Shown in pieces: positions 1 through 44,855 of a stretch of DNA of 44,855 nucleotides. Location: NCBI GenBank assembly GCA_012164735.1, contig GCA_012164735.1_4544.1. One strand, written 5' to 3'. Position 1 is the first letter of the stretch. Every line of letters begins with the position of its first letter. Source of the stretch: a phage. A program made the translations under genes and the position numbers. A model generated the notes under the pieces. The model was not told where the DNA came from, did no database searches, and saw only the letters and a program-made list of their open reading frames with translations.

Positions 1-34
1 AAAAAAAAAGCGCCGAGGCAAAATGCGACGGCGC
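1..34 (-). terminator. Candidate intrinsic terminator (minus strand): GC stem 10-15/29-34 followed on the minus strand by a T9 run (plus-strand A9 at 1-9); may be truncated by the window edge
   Basis: gcgccg...cggcgc inverted repeat with 13-nt loop, then 9 consecutive T on minus strand. Confidence 0.35.
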
Positions 35-87
35 TAACCAATAAGAGACAATGAGACGGGAATTATTATTACACGCGTGCGCGCCCG

Positions 88-135
88 TTTCAATATTCCA
101 GAGGAGTTGACACCCTGCGGTTTTAGGTGTAGTTT
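88..135. promoter_or_regulatory. Divergent promoter-like region: plus strand TTGACA (107-112) - 17 nt - TAGTTT (130-135); minus strand TTGAAA (rc of 88-93) - 17 nt - AATAAT (rc of 65-70)
   Basis: Hexamer matches to sigma70 consensus read by eye; 8-bp palindrome CACGCGTG at 72-79 lies between them. Confidence 0.35.
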
Positions 136-166
136 CATTGGTCATTAACCAACTGGGGGCAGAACA

Positions 167-496
167 ATGAATGTAAACGACGCAATCGAAATGTTAACGA
201 AGACTGTTTGCAGTGAGACTAGCCGGTCCTGGGCGTATACCGATGCCGTGGGTGCGGTGCTATTTGAAATCGAACGTCTGCGACTTACCGAAAAAGAATT
301 GCGCGCGAAGCTGGAATTACTCAACGGTACGGCAGCCAGCAAGCTGCAAAAACACAATGAAGAAATGGAAGAATACAAAAAACAGGTTATCCGTCTACGT
401 GAGGAAGGTAAATCCTGGGCGATGATTGCCGAGTTGACCGGAATTAATCAGAGCACAGTGCGCTCCTGGGTACGCAATAATAAAACTTCTAAGTAA
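167..496 (+). CDS. Small DNA-binding protein with C-terminal helix-turn-helix (possible transcriptional regulator)
   Basis: 109-aa ORF; C-terminal segment KSWAMIAELTGINQSTVRSWVR resembles an HTH; first gene downstream of promoter-like region. Confidence 0.55.
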   Translation: MNVNDAIEMLTKTVCSETSRSWAYTDAVGAVLFEIERLRLTEKELRAKLELLNGTAASKLQKHNEEMEEYKKQVIRLREEGKSWAMIAELTGINQSTVRSWVRNNKTSK

Positions 497-506
497 GGCC
501 ACGGCA

Positions 507-2771
507 ATGAGCTTAATTAAATTCGCTGTAACAAGACCCGCTAAAAAAGGCGAAAAAGCCAGGGCGGAAAACTTCCAGATGACGACCGATGAATTTTTCG
601 AATTTATCAAAGATGCGAAAGAGATATCGTCGGTGCATATCAACAAGACGGAAGATAAAGCCGAGTATGCGCGCCGCAAGCGTAAGGCCGATGGCATCGT
701 AGCGTATACCAGTGACGGCTTACGCCGCAAGACCAGTGCGGTGGACCGCTCGATCCTGTTCTTCGATATTGACCGTACCGACACCCGCACCCTACGCCGC
801 TGCCGTAAGGCTTTCATCGACGCGGGGCTGGAGCACGTATTTCACACCACAACCGGCGACCGCCACCCGCTGAAAGGCGGCACGCGTTGCGCTCGTTTCC
901 TGGTGCTAACCGATAAGCCTGTACCGGCGGAAGACCTGGGCCGCGTACAGTATGCACTATTACACCAACTGGGCCTGTCAGATGTGGACTTCGATGATTG
1001 CACGAAAGACACAAACCGCCTGATGTACCTGCCACACCAGCAGTCTGTTATTAAGTGCCACTACGGCAAGCGTGCCCGCGTCCGTCGTCTGCTTCGCCTG
1101 GCGGATAAGTTGGGCGTGGATAAGGAGGAAGTACGCCGCGAGCTTACCCAGGGCGACGACGCAGTGGCAGACGGCATTCTGGACTGGTGCTTCCAGGCAG
1201 GATTCGAGGAGTTATCTTCCGGTCGCGGTTATGAAGTGCCGTGCCCGAACGAACATCTGCACAGCGGCGAAGGGTCGACGGCTATCATGGTCAAGGATGG
1301 CGAGATCCGTTTCAAGTGTATGCACACCGGCAACGAGTGTTGCTCGGAACTGAACAGACACCAGCACCTGGCGCTACGTCTTATCGGGATCCCGGACCAC
1401 CTGAACGTCGAACCACACAACATGTCACGTAAGCAAATCGCCGCCATCCTCCCCGGACTGGACGACGAGGAAGTGGAATCGTGCTATGCGCATATCGTTG
1501 ATGCGGTCGGAGACGGCGACGAGTACGGCGGATGTACTGATGCAGACCTGGACAACGAGCCGGTTGCGCTGTTCAGTAAGCACGACCCGATCATCGAGGG
1601 GTTGATTAACTTTAAATCGACCTGGTATATGGCGGGCGAGTCGAACATCGGTAAATCGTTCTACGTGCTGGGCCAAATGGGTGCGGTTGCCGCGGGGATT
1701 CCTTTCGGTGGTGCTAAGGTCGTCCAGTCTCATTGCTTCTATTTCGATGCGGAAGGTGGCGAAGCCTCCAACCAGCGTAAGGAAGCACTGCAGATCAAAT
1801 ATGAGCACGACCTGGACAAGCTGCACATTATCGACCTGCAATCTCGCGGCTGGGATATCACCAGCAAATCCGGCTTGCGTGAAGTTATCAGCTTCATCAA
1901 CCGCACCGCTAACGGCGAACCTGTTGGCCTGGTGGCGTTCGACTCTCTCAACCAGACTGTTGCGCTGCGGTCCGCCGATGCTAAACCGTTCGACGAGAAC
2001 AACGCCAGCGATATGGGCGAAGTGGTAAAAGCGCTGAAAGCCATCGCGGAAAATACCGGCGGCAGTGCTGGCGTCATCCACCACCCGGCGAAGGGTGCAA
2101 ACGGCAGCAGATCCCCCCGCGGGTCCGGCGCGCTGCATGGTGCTGTTGATTCTGCGTTCTTCCTGGAGCAACCGGACGACAACCAGCCAGGCCAATTGAA
2201 CCTGTATCACGAAAAGGCACGTAACGGCATCAAGCAAGCGCCGCGTGGCTTCGTCCTGCTCAAGTGCAAGGTGAAGGTAGATCTCCGCAAGTCAGAAGCG
2301 TTCGCGTCGCACCAGTCCACCAGCACCGGTCCGGACTTCGGAGACGTAGTTGCCGGTTGGGACGTCAAACCAATTGCGTCCACCCCGCGCGACGAGACTT
2401 TATACCTCGTACCGGTCGCCCTGGCACCGTTCGCTATAGAACAGGCGAAGGCCGCAGGAAAAGCCGCAGTTAAGGAAGAGAACACCGCCGGACCGCGCAC
2501 CGAAAAAGAAAAGGTACTTTACGCGGCGCTGGAAAAACTGATGGAAGAGAACCCGGACCATACCGGATTCAGTAAATCGGCGATTGTCCGCCAAGCGGGA
2601 CTTGCGAAAGGTGGCACATCGACGAAGGCAATCGACGATATGATCGAGCGCGGCGTACTCGGTTTTTATACAGACCCGCACACCGGGGCCATCTACGGGT
2701 CGTCGAATATCGTCATCAAAACGAATATACCCATCACGCTTTCGGCGACCGATGATGACTTAAAAGACTAA
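507..2771 (+). CDS. Replication initiator: archaeo-eukaryotic-type primase domain fused to RecA-like (Walker A/B) helicase, with C-terminal putative winged-helix DNA-binding domain
   Basis: 754 aa; FFDIDRTD and HVFHTTTGDRH motifs (AEP-like DxD / sxH); Walker A GESNIGKSF; Walker B-like LVAFDSLN; RBS aagg upstream. Confidence 0.7.
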   Translation: MSLIKFAVTRPAKKGEKARAENFQMTTDEFFEFIKDAKEISSVHINKTEDKAEYARRKRKADGIVAYTSDGLRRKTSAVDRSILFFDIDRTDTRTLRRCRKAFIDAGLEHVFHTTTGDRHPLKGGTRCARFLVLTDKPVPAEDLGRVQYALLHQLGLSDVDFDDCTKDTNRLMYLPHQQSVIKCHYGKRARVRRLLRLADKLGVDKEEVRRELTQGDDAVADGILDWCFQAGFEELSSGRGYEVPCPNEHLHSGEGSTAIMVKDGEIRFKCMHTGNECCSELNRHQHLALRLIGIPDHLNVEPHNMSRKQIAAILPGLDDEEVESCYAHIVDAVGDGDEYGGCTDADLDNEPVALFSKHDPIIEGLINFKSTWYMAGESNIGKSFYVLGQMGAVAAGIPFGGAKVVQSHCFYFDAEGGEASNQRKEALQIKYEHDLDKLHIIDLQSRGWDITSKSGLREVISFINRTANGEPVGLVAFDSLNQTVALRSADAKPFDENNASDMGEVVKALKAIAENTGGSAGVIHHPAKGANGSRSPRGSGALHGAVDSAFFLEQPDDNQPGQLNLYHEKARNGIKQAPRGFVLLKCKVKVDLRKSEAFASHQSTSTGPDFGDVVAGWDVKPIASTPRDETLYLVPVALAPFAIEQAKAAGKAAVKEENTAGPRTEKEKVLYAALEKLMEENPDHTGFSKSAIVRQAGLAKGGTSTKAIDDMIERGVLGFYTDPHTGAIYGSSNIVIKTNIPITLSATDDDLKD

Positions 2772-5172: not shown

Positions 5173-5207
5173 AGTCCCAGTGAGCTAAAACTTACTGGGA
5201 CTTTTTT
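5173..5207 (+). terminator. Rho-independent terminator
   Basis: Stem agtcccagt/actgggact with 12-nt loop followed by T5-6. Confidence 0.55.
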
Positions 5208-6404: not shown

Positions 6405-6430
6405 AAGCCCGGCTAATGTCGGGCTTTTTA
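6405..6430 (+). terminator. Rho-independent terminator
   Basis: Stem aagcccg/cgggctt, loop 8 nt, T-run. Confidence 0.55.
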
Positions 6431-7995: not shown

Positions 7996-8021
7996 AGCCC
8001 GCCGATTTGGTGGGCTTTTTT
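7996..8021 (+). terminator. Rho-independent terminator
   Basis: Stem agcccgcc/ggtgggct (one G-U), T6. Confidence 0.5.
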
Positions 8022-22982: not shown

Positions 22983-23011
22983 GCCCTCACATACAACGTG
23001 GGGGCTTTTTT
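22983..23011 (+). terminator. Rho-independent terminator abutting the next start codon
   Basis: Stem gccctcac/gtgggggc (one mismatch), T6 ending 1 nt before ATG 23012. Confidence 0.45.
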
Positions 23012-23611
23012 ATGGCGCAAGGTACAATCACACTAACGAACGGAAGTAAGACCGTCACGGGCGCGGGGACGGCGTTCCTGAGCGAGATCGGGAAGGTCCG
23101 CGTATTTGCCCGCATCGACGGCAACGACTACACCGGTAAAATCGCTGCATTCAACTCTGACACCGTCATCACCCTGGTGGATAACTGGGCCGGTCCGACA
23201 AAAGCCGGTGCAGCCTACGAGCTAATCGAAGCGCACGACCCGCGATCAAACGAATGGCCCTATTACTGGCACATGCAATTGCAGGGCGGCGGCGACGTGC
23301 AATTGGCTTTCCGGTCGGAGGAATTGCAATTCGGTAACGGCTATGGTCAGAACATCGCAGACGGCCCGAACGCCGAGACGAAACAGTTCCCCGTGCAATT
23401 CATCGGACTGACTACGGACAAGTGGTGTGACCCTAAACTGGTGTACAACTTCCTTCGCGGGCACTTCGTCAAGCCGTTTGTCGTCACCGCGCCGGATGGC
23501 GAAACAGGTTTATTCGTGGTCGAGCGTTCGAGCTTGTCGTACACTGACAACGGACACTACACGGCAACTGTATCAGCCACCCTTAAGACTGCTATTGGAT
23601 TCGTAAGATGA
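23012..23611 (+). CDS. Minor tail protein (lambda M-like)
   Basis: Synteny in M-L-K-I-J block. Confidence 0.65.
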   Translation: MAQGTITLTNGSKTVTGAGTAFLSEIGKVRVFARIDGNDYTGKIAAFNSDTVITLVDNWAGPTKAGAAYELIEAHDPRSNEWPYYWHMQLQGGGDVQLAFRSEELQFGNGYGQNIADGPNAETKQFPVQFIGLTTDKWCDPKLVYNFLRGHFVKPFVVTAPDGETGLFVVERSSLSYTDNGHYTATVSATLKTAIGFVR

Positions 23612-24396
23612 ATAAACTATATCGCGAGGCGACGCGCTTTGACCCATCGGGCCGCGTTCGCCTGATTCACATTGACGCGCAGGACGTGGAGCCGGGCGAC
23701 GGCGCGATCGGCGCGGGCCACCACTATTTTCATTACTGCTTTATTCCGCATACTGCCGAAGATATTGCTGCCGCTGGTGGAGACGAGGACAAGCTGAAGC
23801 CAAAATCTATCTTCTTTGGCGGGCAGGAGTTCGAATTTTGGCCCTTCGATTTGTCCGGCCTCAACTTCTCCACATCAACGGCAGCAGAACCGCAGCTAAC
23901 TATCGTCGATATTGGCGGGATTATTACCCGGCTATCGCTGAATCACGACCAGCTACTTGGCGCGAAGGTTGAAATCATAGACACGTTTGCTAAGTTCCTG
24001 GACAACGGGCCAGATCCAGACCCAACGCAAAAACGTGTACAGGAGTTTTACATCGACTCCCAGGTGGGCCGAAATCCGGGCAAACAAATCACCTTCGCAT
24101 TATCCTCGCCCGCGGATATGGAGGGGCAAGTAGTCCCGCGCCGCCAAATCATGAACATGTGCGAATGGGCGCTCAATGGGAAGTACGCCAGCGGGGACGG
24201 GTGCACGTGGAACCTTGCACAGCCAGGCATCAAGTATTATGACGAGCGCGGTAATGAAGTCATCGCGATGGATATGGACCGGTGCGGCGGCTGTTTGTCC
24301 GACTGTTATCTTCGATTTGGACAAGGGCTTGCAGATCCGAAAGCGGCGGTACTGGACTACGGCGGCTTTCCGGGGTCCAGATTAATTAAGGGGTAG
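23608..24396 (+). CDS. Minor tail protein (lambda L-like) with C-terminal Cys cluster
   Basis: 262 aa; CGGCLSDC Cys motif; synteny. Confidence 0.65.
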   Translation: MNKLYREATRFDPSGRVRLIHIDAQDVEPGDGAIGAGHHYFHYCFIPHTAEDIAAAGGDEDKLKPKSIFFGGQEFEFWPFDLSGLNFSTSTAAEPQLTIVDIGGIITRLSLNHDQLLGAKVEIIDTFAKFLDNGPDPDPTQKRVQEFYIDSQVGRNPGKQITFALSSPADMEGQVVPRRQIMNMCEWALNGKYASGDGCTWNLAQPGIKYYDERGNEVIAMDMDRCGGCLSDCYLRFGQGLADPKAAVLDYGGFPGSRLIKG

Positions 24397-24398
24397 TC

Positions 24399-25139
24399 AT
24401 GTTAACGAAAAAGGTTAAGAGCGATATCGCCGCACACGTTGCGGCATGTCTGCCTGAAGAAGCGTGCGGCCTGGTCGTCATGGTGGGCCGTAAGCAAGTA
24501 TTTATCCCGTGCCTGAACGTGTTCGAAGACCCGACCGGCGCGCGATCGCGTAAGGACGCGTTTACAATTAGTGATATGGCATGGATGGACGCCGAGGATA
24601 TTGGCGACGTCGTGCGCGTAGTCCACTCACATCCAGGTCAGCGGGAGTTAACCCCATCATTGGGCGACGTTAACGGATGCAACGGCAGCGGCATAGTGTG
24701 GACCATTACCAACGAGTACGGCGACTTTATCGAGATCGACCCTGAAGACCCACCACTGGTAGGTCGCCGATTTGTTCTCGGAATTACGGATTGCTATGGC
24801 CTCGTCATGGACTGGCACAAAAAGCAGGGCGTGAATCTGCCTGACTTCCGCGTGCCGTACAACTGGTGGGAGATGGGCGAAAGCCTGTACATGGATAACT
24901 GGTATGATGCGGGATTCAGGGAGTGCGCGGAGAATACGCCGGGGGCAATGGTCATCATGCAGATTAGCGCACCAGTGCCAAACCATGCTGGGATCTTCCT
25001 TCCGGGCAACCAACTACTACACCATATCTACGGCAGCCTGTCGAGCGTGGTCCCCTTCCGGGCAGGATTTTTCCGCGACAATGTGGTTAAATGGGTACGT
25101 CATAAAGACTTACCTGGGGAAATCACAGAATGGCAATGA
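24399..25139 (+). CDS. Tail assembly protein (lambda K-like; MPN/JAB plus NlpC/P60-like)
   Basis: VVHSHPG ... S ... D JAB-like motif; synteny. Confidence 0.75.
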   Translation: MLTKKVKSDIAAHVAACLPEEACGLVVMVGRKQVFIPCLNVFEDPTGARSRKDAFTISDMAWMDAEDIGDVVRVVHSHPGQRELTPSLGDVNGCNGSGIVWTITNEYGDFIEIDPEDPPLVGRRFVLGITDCYGLVMDWHKKQGVNLPDFRVPYNWWEMGESLYMDNWYDAGFRECAENTPGAMVIMQISAPVPNHAGIFLPGNQLLHHIYGSLSSVVPFRAGFFRDNVVKWVRHKDLPGEITEWQ

Positions 25140-44055: not shown

Positions 44056-44082
44056 CTCGTCCTCTAAAAAGAGGCCCGCAGA
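44056..44082 (-). terminator. Minus-strand intrinsic terminator between the first and second early genes
   Basis: rc: ggcccgc taatct gcgggcc then TCTTTTT. Confidence 0.55.
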
Positions 44083-44100
44083 TTAGCGGGCCGGAATATA

Positions 44101-44619
44101 TTAATCTTCCAGTTCGAAATAGGTTTCGACGATTTCTTTTAACTCTGTGTGGAAGTCTTCGACGTCGTCATCTTCCAGCTTGGCGATTGATTTGATCTCG
44201 AACGATTCCAGCAGGTCGTCGAATTCGTCGTTCGCATCGTCGTCATCACCACCGGCGATAATCGCGGCATACTGTTTGATTTCGTCGCGCATCTCCGCCA
44301 GCGGATCGGCATCTTTCTTACCTTTGCCTTTCGCCGGTGCTTTTTTAGCCTTAGCCGGTTTTTCGTCTTCGGCTTCTTCGTCGTCGTCATCTTCTACGAC
44401 TTCTTTTTTGGCCTTACCTTTCGCCGGTGCTTTTTTAGATTTAGCCGGTTTTTCGTCTTCAGCTTCATCGTCGTCATCTTCGACAACTTCTTTTTTGGCC
44501 TTAGACGGCTTCTTGTCTTCCTGTTTACCAACGGCAGCGCCAACGGTTTCATAATGCTTTGCAATGGTTTCCAGTGCTACTACGCCGCGAGTGATCAGGT
44601 TTACGATTTGCTCAAACAT
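44101..44619 (-). CDS. Highly acidic protein with two ~34-aa tandem repeats (start at ATG 44619); first gene of the minus-strand block
   Basis: RBS ggag; KKEVVEDDDDE ... KPAK ... KKAPAKGK repeated twice; ~100-bp DNA direct repeat 44320-44520. Confidence 0.55.
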   Translation of the reverse strand: MFEQIVNLITRGVVALETIAKHYETVGAAVGKQEDKKPSKAKKEVVEDDDDEAEDEKPAKSKKAPAKGKAKKEVVEDDDDEEAEDEKPAKAKKAPAKGKGKKDADPLAEMRDEIKQYAAIIAGGDDDDANDEFDDLLESFEIKSIAKLEDDDVEDFHTELKEIVETYFELED

Positions 44620-44814
44620 GGTATATCTCCGATTGGTTAAGTTTAGGTGTCGGCAGTTAACTTCGTCGGTGGCCTTAACATATTGCCAGGTTACGCGTTC
44701 TCCCGTTCGGGTAGTGGACCTGGTTATATAATCACGGTTGGGAATCCTGACACTTCGATCCGGCCCCTGCGTTGCCCCTCTCCAGTTTGCGTCCTGCATC
44801 CTGTCGACGGAGTG

Positions 44815-44845
44815 AATGATAGATTGGTTGCAGGATAGGTGTCAA
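44815..44845 (-). promoter_or_regulatory. Candidate promoter for the minus-strand block (TTGACA - 18 nt - TATCAT), with ATTGGTTGCA motif in the spacer
   Basis: Hexamers read on the minus strand; motif at 44823-44832. Confidence 0.35.
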
Positions 44846-44855
44846 CAACTAATTT

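Follow-up and report, generated by a model that had tools for sequence, protein, structure and literature searches.

The stretch of DNA considered here (contig GCA_012164735.1_4544.1 of the NCBI GenBank assembly GCA_012164735.1), hereafter called the window, is the complete, circularly permuted genome of a Dhillonvirus, an HK578-like virulent siphophage of Escherichia coli, 44,855 bp in length and linearised inside an intergenic region. Its first 3 kb matches 164 phage records, nearly all of which are Dhillonvirus, and 151 of them cover most of the query at 90-95% identity. At this place a control region of about 400 bp divides the leftward early operon, whose first gene occupies 44101-44619 on the minus strand (ATG at 44619), from the rightward early operon, which begins with a gene for a helix-turn-helix (HTH) protein (167-496, plus strand) and continues with the primase-helicase gene (507-2771, plus strand). 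Inside the control region, positions 1-93 hold the element under study: on the minus strand, a putative promoter (Ps, 93-65), a short segment predicted to be unstructured (57-36), a GC-rich hairpin (35-9) and a run of nine T residues, which together have the form of a small-RNA (sRNA) gene. An initial annotation of the window had proposed a minus-strand sRNA of about 55-60 nt here, and the conservation pattern, the covariation of the stem and the absence of a conserved open reading frame (ORF), as described below, argue for that reading.

The initial annotation had also warned that the window edge might cut the element short. This is not the case, since the genome is circularly permuted and its relatives are continuous across the junction. 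In Over9000, bob and Envy, the bases that end the window (...GGTGTCAACAACTAATTT) run straight into the A-run and the hairpin that open it; that is, the window end ...CAACTAATTT is contiguous in relatives with the A-run at the window start. Past position 1, the sequence holds a second strong promoter (PL), which belongs to the leftward operon, and no competing feature.

The element was found in all 155 Dhillonvirus records of the phage collection, at 83-100% identity with a 226-bp query across the region. We gathered 28 element-carrying loci from GenBank phages, IMG/VR and metagenomes, which show three types of hairpin stem, and the 22 distinct sequences of types I and II were compared. The metagenome contig OQVL01056812.1 (L026), the only fetched locus without the element, was dropped from the comparison: at about 420-470 of its upstream segment an Illumina adapter (ACACTCTTTCCCTACACGACGCTCTTCCGATCT) replaces the terminator and the PL region, which marks the contig as an assembly chimera and not as a natural variant.

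A promoter scan recovered Ps just as the initial annotation had described it, with the -35 hexamer TTGAAA (88-93), a 17-nt spacer (71-87) and the -10 hexamer AATAAT (65-70), all on the minus strand. Ps matches the sigma-70 consensus at 10 of 12 positions and has, in addition, the TG of an extended -10 (73-72; TG-n-AATAAT). Only five promoter-like sites of at least 10/12 occur in the ~43 kb scanned, from which the stretch 23000-24855 was left out, and two of the five flank the hairpin on the minus strand, namely Ps (93-65) and PL (44845-44816). The -35 hexamer is kept in 26 of the 28 loci, the exceptions being TTGAAC in CHD5UKE2 (L024) and TTGCGC in L018. The -10 hexamer is identical in all type I and type II loci and reads TATTAT in type III. 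The spacer measures 17 nt in every locus except L015 (15 nt), and its sequence is also largely conserved. The discriminator (58-64, minus strand), which leads from the -10 hexamer to the predicted start, is hypervariable: at least nine variants of sequence or length are sandwiched between two invariant blocks, with 6-7 nt from the -10 to the invariant GT. An invariant -10, a free discriminator and an invariant body are what a used promoter and its transcript would be expected to look like, and the same pattern would place the transcription start at about G57. The spacer also contains an invariant palindrome, CACGCGTG (72-79), which includes an MluI site and could be a regulator site controlling Ps.

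The predicted RNA begins with a 22-nt body, GUCUCAUUGUCUCUUAUUGGUU(A) (36-57, minus strand), which is predicted to be unpaired and is proposed as the seed, that is, the region that would pair with targets. The body contains two GUCUC motifs, similar to anti-Shine-Dalgarno (anti-SD) sequences, and UUGGUUA; the core motif ATTGGTTA lies at 42-35 (minus strand), so that the ATTGGTT core of the initial annotation is present, as is its nine-T run at 1-9. The body does not vary among the 22 distinct sequences of types I and II, save for a 1-nt deletion in the type II clade, and its 10-mer CUCAUUGUCU is retained even in the divergent type III. Variation is seen in the discriminator, in the loop of the hairpin, in the 13 bp that separate the -35 of Ps from that of the rightward promoter (PR), the two standing back-to-back, and in the PR spacer.

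The body is followed by the terminator hairpin (9-35, minus strand), identified by folding and covariation, in which A35-G29 pair with C15-U9 (stem AGCGCCG/CGGCGCU). The initial annotation was right about the presence of this hairpin, while its 6-bp stem with a large loop has to be corrected: the stem has 7 bp, six G-C and one A-U, and the 13-nt loop is partly structured, holding an inner helix of 3 bp with a 3-nt loop. The GC-rich stem (six G-C in 7 bp) leads into a U9 tail (1-9, minus strand; 8-12 T in relatives), which is the arrangement of an intrinsic terminator, and this T9 is the sole homopolymeric A/T run of at least 8 in the genome. The hairpin is labelled as a terminator in two GenBank records, in one of which the label is assigned to the minus strand. 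Folding of the predicted transcript from about 57 to 1 yields the 7-bp hairpin at -16.7 kcal/mol (z = -3.9), and none of 200 shuffles was as stable. The U/A-rich CUCUUAUUGGUUA stands directly before the hairpin and U9 directly after it, as in the tail of an Hfq-type sRNA; together with a GC hairpin, such a stretch and such a long U tail reportedly make up an Hfq-binding module. With these parts behind a free 5' seed, the predicted RNA has the architecture of an Hfq-type trans-acting sRNA and may bind Hfq.

The stem itself has changed within the genus without losing its pairing. Type I (AGCGCCG/CGGCGCU) is found in most phages, type II (AUCCCCG/CGGGGAU) in the LM40P1 clade (L015, L022 and L023), and type III (AUCCCCA/UGGGGAU) in an IMG/VR contig (3300045988_050407; L018/L056). 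Each of the three types folds well, with z from -3.0 to -5.4, and no stem substitution breaks pairing across them. In the alignment of types I and II, 50 of 50 pair cells are paired, and in type II two pairs have both partners exchanged. These two types also served to build a covariance model, which detects just one copy in the window (2-57, minus strand, 90.6 bits) and recovers type III at E = 0.069, where 7/7 outer pairs are kept and three are changed on both sides. Type III was aligned by the covariance model, since MAFFT misplaced its 3' arm relative to the other two types.

No conserved ORF was found on either strand across the compared loci. No Rfam family, oop, sar, c4 and DicF included, reached its gathering threshold anywhere in the window, and the best sub-threshold match at the locus (E-value mode), with 19.6 bits against a threshold of 72, reflects only the generic terminator shape. 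No tRNA or tmRNA was found, and there is no homologue among 5,426 E. coli genomes. In IMG/VR and the metagenomes, searched by protein-anchored scans and a DNA pattern scan, only Dhillonvirus-like contigs carry the GC hairpin; the other matches of the pattern scan were rejected as AT-rich chance hits without it. The arrangement is not that of a cis-antisense RNA either: the RNA would occupy 1-57, and on the plus strand the nearest gene begins only at 167, with a promoter that begins at 107. The records examined annotate no RNA feature at the locus, which bears only terminator labels or a spurious ORF.

Then, what could the conserved body pair with? Its reverse complement, TAACCAAT-AAGAGA-CA-ATG-AGAC, resembles the initiation regions of both divergent first genes, which read TTAACCAAT-CGGAGA-TATACC-ATG for leftward gene 1 and TTAACCAAC-TGGGGGCAGAACA-ATG for the HTH gene. 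TAACCAA stands 20-21 nt upstream of both divergent first start codons, and three of the six genomic copies of TTGGTTA/TAACCAA lie within the 400-bp control region. As the reverse complement of the body is close to a decayed initiation region (UUAACCAAY, a purine-rich SD and AUG), the comparison suggests that the gene arose by inverted duplication of a target.

Three candidate targets stand out among the neighbours. The first is the initiation region of leftward gene 1, UUAACCAAUCGGAGAUAUACCAUG (44617-44640, minus strand), which forms an inverted repeat with the element (I1, 14 nt, 86%) and a duplex of -17.9 kcal/mol. The second, from the duplex ranking, is the initiation region of the HTH gene, UUAACCAACUGGGGGCAGAACAAUGA (145-170, plus strand), and the third is the start-codon region of the primase-helicase gene, GGCAAUGAG (503-511, plus strand), complementary to nt 3-11 of the RNA. 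Duplex energies were ranked over the 64 annotated starts of Over9000 and the 54 starts mapped into the window by blastn. In Over9000 the HTH gene ranks first, leftward gene 3 third, leftward gene 1 fifth and the primase tenth; in the window the ranks are 3 for leftward gene 3, 4 for HTH, 5 for leftward gene 1, 8 for the primase and 9 for leftward gene 2. Mann-Whitney tests of the neighbours against the other 59 start regions give p values of 0.0004 (type I), 0.003 (type II) and 0.07 (type III), which are optimistic because only leftward gene 1 and HTH were neighbours a priori, whereas the inclusion of the primase and of leftward genes 2 and 3 was decided once the data had been seen. For the trio of leftward gene 1, HTH and primase, the mean duplex energy is 6.75 kcal/mol below that of the other starts in Over9000; composition-preserving shuffles of the seed give -0.27 +/- 1.39, none of 400 reaching the observed value, and the reversed seed gives -1.86. 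In the window the trio lies 5.9 kcal/mol below the rest, which again none of 400 seed shuffles reaches.

Complementarity is also seen in the diverged types. The helix at the primase start is GGCAAUGAG in type I (9 bp with one G-U), the 12-mer GAGACAAUGAGA in type II and the 10-mer GACAAUGAGC in type III, and the position 5' of CUCAUUG is U in type II, where it pairs with A, and G in type III, where it pairs with C. Types I and III have no sequence in common in the middle of the RNA or in the ribosome-binding site (RBS) of leftward gene 1, yet the two segments of type III are complementary to each other (ACUCCUGAA/UUUAGGAGU, -20.2 kcal/mol). In CHD5UKE2, the start of the gene that replaces HTH is a perfect 10-mer complement of the seed.

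Beyond the neighbourhood, the seed 13-mer, when up to 3 mismatches are allowed, shows a mild enrichment only (16 against 8.8). A global regulon of start codons complementary to a CAU-centred seed was also considered and rejected, there being no genome-wide enrichment. GAGAC, the complement of GUCUC, occurs in the SD region of Over9000 gp34, gp38, gp47, gp48, gp56 and gp57, all non-structural early or middle genes, and in none of gp1-gp28; this clustering may just be a flavour of SD sequence.

The sequence features, the conservation, the covariation of the stem, the non-coding nature and the preferential complementarity to neighbouring starts are direct observations. In light of them, the locus is likely a real and independent sRNA gene, with a predicted transcript. 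A possible function, for which the chances fall somewhat short of even, is that the 5' segment pairs with the initiation regions of neighbouring early genes and represses their translation. The account as a whole, a self-contained non-coding RNA gene of ~54-57 nt that would act on both early operons, is given a probability of about 0.55. Under this account, the sigma-70 RNA polymerase of the host would start at the extended -10 promoter (93-65) at about G57, transcribe the unstructured 22-nt segment (57-36) and halt at the intrinsic terminator formed by the hairpin (35-9) and U9. The 5' segment would then base-pair with the SD and start-codon regions of leftward gene 1 (44619), HTH (167) and primase-helicase (507), with leftward genes 2 and 3 as possible further targets. 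Such pairing would lower translation of the targets as the RNA accumulates, and could serve as a brake on the dosage or timing of early and replication functions. The boldest version, in which one antisense RNA derived from an inverted duplication co-represses the first genes of both early operons together with primase-helicase, as an early shut-off or replication-dosage timer, seems rather doubtful. Transcription, the exact ends, Hfq use, repression and the identity of the targets are what we infer from the sequence.

Several points weigh against this account, in addition to the optimistic p values. The hairpin loop of 13 nt is larger than the 3-8 nt typical of textbook terminators, and a scanner with a loop limit of 8 did not list the hairpin. 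In the covariation control (a), 17 of 500 shuffles reached the observed values; moreover, the genus is shallow, most loci being more than 90% identical, and only three independent stem types bear on covariation. As for the targets, the adjacent RBS was not in the top 60 windows of a genome-wide sliding duplex scan on both strands, so that duplex energy by itself does not pick it out. Leftward gene 1 alone is a weak case: among 126 start regions defined heuristically it ranks 4th with the type I seed, 33rd with type II and 12th with type III. Complementarity of start codons to the CAU-centred seed (7-mer or longer) was found in 3 genes, against 3.1 expected from shuffled seeds. The seed is invariant and predicted to be unpaired, and neighbouring starts are favoured, yet the single-target and genome-wide tests are weak, and its likeness to the target-pairing seed of an Hfq-type sRNA is tentative. 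Searches of the literature by the genus name, HK578 and the sequence itself found no Dhillonvirus transcriptome, sRNA or promoter study, and no transcript data. Finally, the inverted TAACCAA/TTGGTTA motifs could be operator sites for a protein in the DNA.

This last point leads to the alternative that the conserved blocks are DNA-level elements only. According to it, the T-run with AAATTAG is an UP element of PL, the GC palindrome and ATTGGTT/AACCAAT are sites for the HTH protein or a host factor, and the Ps match insulates or competes with PR while its product has no function. PL, the promoter of the leftward early operon, reads TTGACA / 18 nt / TATCAT (44816-44845, minus strand, 11/12) and lies directly downstream of the terminator across the circular junction, where the minus strand runs through U9, AAATTAGTTG, TTGACA, 18 nt and TATCAT. 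Its -10 varies in relatives between TATCAT, TATTAT and TAATAT, with TAnnAT common to all. The T-run and AAATTA occupy about -54 to -37 of PL, the T-run itself about -54 to -46, so that by its position, judged by the Estrem/Gourse consensus, the T-run probably also forms the distal half of an UP element. The run may serve as both terminator tail and UP element, which does not undercut the terminator reading; the initial annotation had considered that the run might belong to another feature instead, and it is better seen as probably shared with PL. ATTGGTT-type motifs cluster in the 400 bp, including a copy in the PL spacer and the palindrome TTGGTcattaACCAA at 138-152, and an HTH protein is encoded next door; the motif cluster and the palindrome make the DNA-level reading a serious partial rival. 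However, changes that preserve stem pairing are unexpected for a palindrome recognised by a protein, the invariance of all 22 nt of the body goes beyond a motif, and a hypervariable discriminator between an invariant -10 and the body is the signature of a used promoter. In addition, TAACCAA stands at equal distance and in the same orientation from two start codons, which points to a role at the mRNA level. On balance, we consider it unlikely that DNA-level elements are all there is.

Alternatively, the locus could be a terminated leader, in which transcripts from Ps stop at the hairpin and read into the leftward genes only with a phage antiterminator, the 22 nt being a site of pausing or loading. 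On one strand, Ps and the terminator are indeed contiguous with the leftward operon, and the initial transcribed region is strongly conserved. But read-through is not needed where the stronger PL (11/12) follows right after the terminator, and a hairpin with U9-12 makes a strong stop. An antiterminator-like gene did not come to light, although no systematic search for one was made, and the preferential complementarity to start regions on both sides is left unexplained. The leader is thus an improbable explanation.

A third possibility is an element of a replication origin, where the short transcript primes DNA synthesis or activates an origin in the control region. GC skew flips its sign at the control region and its cumulative minimum is located there, at the divergence of transcription and 450 bp from the primase-helicase gene, and an A-tract and GC-rich palindromes are present. 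However, the skew merely tracks the direction of the genes, the region showed no iterons, DnaA boxes or AT-rich unwinding element, and the RNA would end at a strong terminator, not at a site of the R-loop type. As nothing beyond location speaks for it, an origin function is very improbable.

That the minus-strand ORF 138-34 (34 aa) yields a functional small protein with the hairpin as its terminator is rejected as practically untenable: coding sequences are annotated here in two GenBank records (bas16_0049 of BASEL GeorgBuechner, 34 aa, and the longer gp39 of CHD5UKE2) and the ORF stops 1 nt ahead of the hairpin, but its ATG (138-136) is restricted to the window/Envy lineage (Envy and its IMG/VR copy) and is ACG in all the other loci, both candidate frames are broken by 1-nt indels, which lie at 58-64 and 94-106, there is no SD, and the ORF crosses the PR promoter.

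The surroundings of the predicted sRNA gene deserve some description. PR, the promoter of the HTH/primase operon, was read from the sequence as TTGACA / 17 nt / TAGTTT (107-135, plus strand), back-to-back with Ps. Its -35 is invariant in relatives; its -10 is weak and was not listed by the promoter scan. Just past this -10, at the start of the HTH mRNA, TTGGTcattaACCAA (138-152, plus strand) is a perfect 5-5-5 palindrome with the look of an operator, perhaps one through which the HTH protein controls its own gene. The palindrome overlaps TAACCAA, the motif put forward above as a target of the RNA. The HTH protein (109 aa) has various names in GenBank ('DNA recombination nuclease inhibitor gamma', 'transposase', 'resolvase'), which look like propagated mis-annotation; Pfam finds only a C-terminal HTH_23/sigma-70 region-4-like helix-turn-helix. 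In CHD5UKE2 (NC_073059.1), an unrelated gene of 149 aa (925-1374) takes the place of the HTH gene. The boundary of this mosaic is in the PR spacer, immediately after the PR -35; the sRNA gene, PL and the PR -35 are retained.

On the other side, the product of leftward gene 1 (172 aa, phrog_3127, function unknown, no Pfam domain) is of low complexity, with tandem KKAPAKGK(A/G)KK and acidic D/E-run repeats, which differ in number among phages, and its C-terminal half is acidic and conserved; the protein could act as a DNA mimic or be associated with the nucleoid. A segment of ~150 nt in its 5' untranslated region (UTR) (44655-44800, minus strand) is present in the window, Over9000, bob, L027 and L028 and absent from Envy, CHD5UKE2, L025 and the LM40P1 clade. 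Because this segment is optional, the leader of leftward gene 1 measures either ~190 nt or ~55 nt. Over9000 annotates the segment as an N-terminal extension of gp49 (231 vs 172 aa), which is probably wrong. The segment contains a hairpin (44686-44723, minus strand; CCAGG...27 nt...CCUGG) with an inner CCCGAACGGG stem-loop, whose middle pair covaries between A-U (window), U-A (L028) and C-G (bob); the 190-nt leftward 5' UTR as a structured RNA shows no excess stability (z = +1.2). The control region also has a direct-repeat periodicity of ~191 bp, with the families D1-D3 (L001 2264-2645, corresponding to 44620-44855 plus 1-150 of the window). The RBS-proximal repeat unit resembles a decayed tandem copy of the sRNA/PL unit that lacks the A-run and the left stem arm; the paralogy is clear over the first 45 nt, and the alignment is weak beyond. 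Well-formed intrinsic terminators stand between individual early genes, for example at 44073-44092 (minus strand, GGCCCGC...GCGGGCC with a T-run) between leftward genes 1 and 2, and on the plus strand at 5173-5202, 6405-6426 and 7996-8016, a hint that early transcription is finely segmented.

Dhillonviruses are among the most commonly isolated siphophages of E. coli; some are candidates for phage therapy, and they are represented in the BASEL collection. To our knowledge, their early regulation is uncharacterised, and regulatory sRNAs, well known in temperate phages and prophages, are scarce in virulent coliphages. The element is genus-wide and, being short and easy to mutate, would be a handle on the timing of early genes and the expression of primase-helicase. 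The kind of element is familiar; what would be notable is the proposed brake by one RNA on both early operons and the replicase. Even if the RNA is not made, the locus still packs three promoters and one terminator into a small space, an arrangement mis-called by annotation pipelines.

Among known systems, the predicted RNA is similar to Hfq-dependent enterobacterial sRNAs, including the prophage-encoded DicF (53 nt), in its small size, its conserved and putatively single-stranded seed, its U/A stretch, GC hairpin and U tail, and the short imperfect pairing to the SD/start regions of several mRNAs that is proposed for it. However, DicF is processed from a longer transcript, while the RNA proposed here has its own predicted promoter, belongs to a virulent phage and has no Rfam match. 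The c4 antisense RNA of P1 and P7 is likewise a phage sRNA encoded on the same strand just upstream of its target gene, acts in trans through short complementary blocks that mask the RBS, and forms with its target a pair that resembles a sequence duplication. The difference is that c4 is processed by RNase P from the transcript of its own target and serves the immunity of a temperate phage, whereas the Dhillonvirus RNA, without an Rfam match to c4, would be made in a virulent phage, from a promoter and up to a terminator of its own, and its candidate targets are spread over both divergent operons. Lambda oop and P22 sar (~69-77 nt) share with it the short length, a dedicated sigma-70 promoter, an intrinsic terminator and the post-transcriptional control of an early regulator, which is here a proposal, but they are cis-antisense RNAs that overlap their targets; the Dhillonvirus RNA is wholly intergenic, with no conserved gene opposite and no Rfam match to either. 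The lambda PR'/6S RNA/tR' unit also places a strong constitutive promoter, with a strong terminator tens of nt later, upstream of an operon on the same strand. The Dhillonvirus locus differs in having a separate strong promoter after the terminator and a predicted transcript of only ~56 nt; moreover, we know of no Q-like antiterminator in this phage. A likeness in function only is seen with RegA of T4, a repressor that covers the initiation regions of several early mRNAs and thereby shuts off their translation. RegA is a protein and the proposed Dhillonvirus effector an RNA; if the account given here is true, an RNA of 56 nt does for this phage what the RegA protein does for T4.

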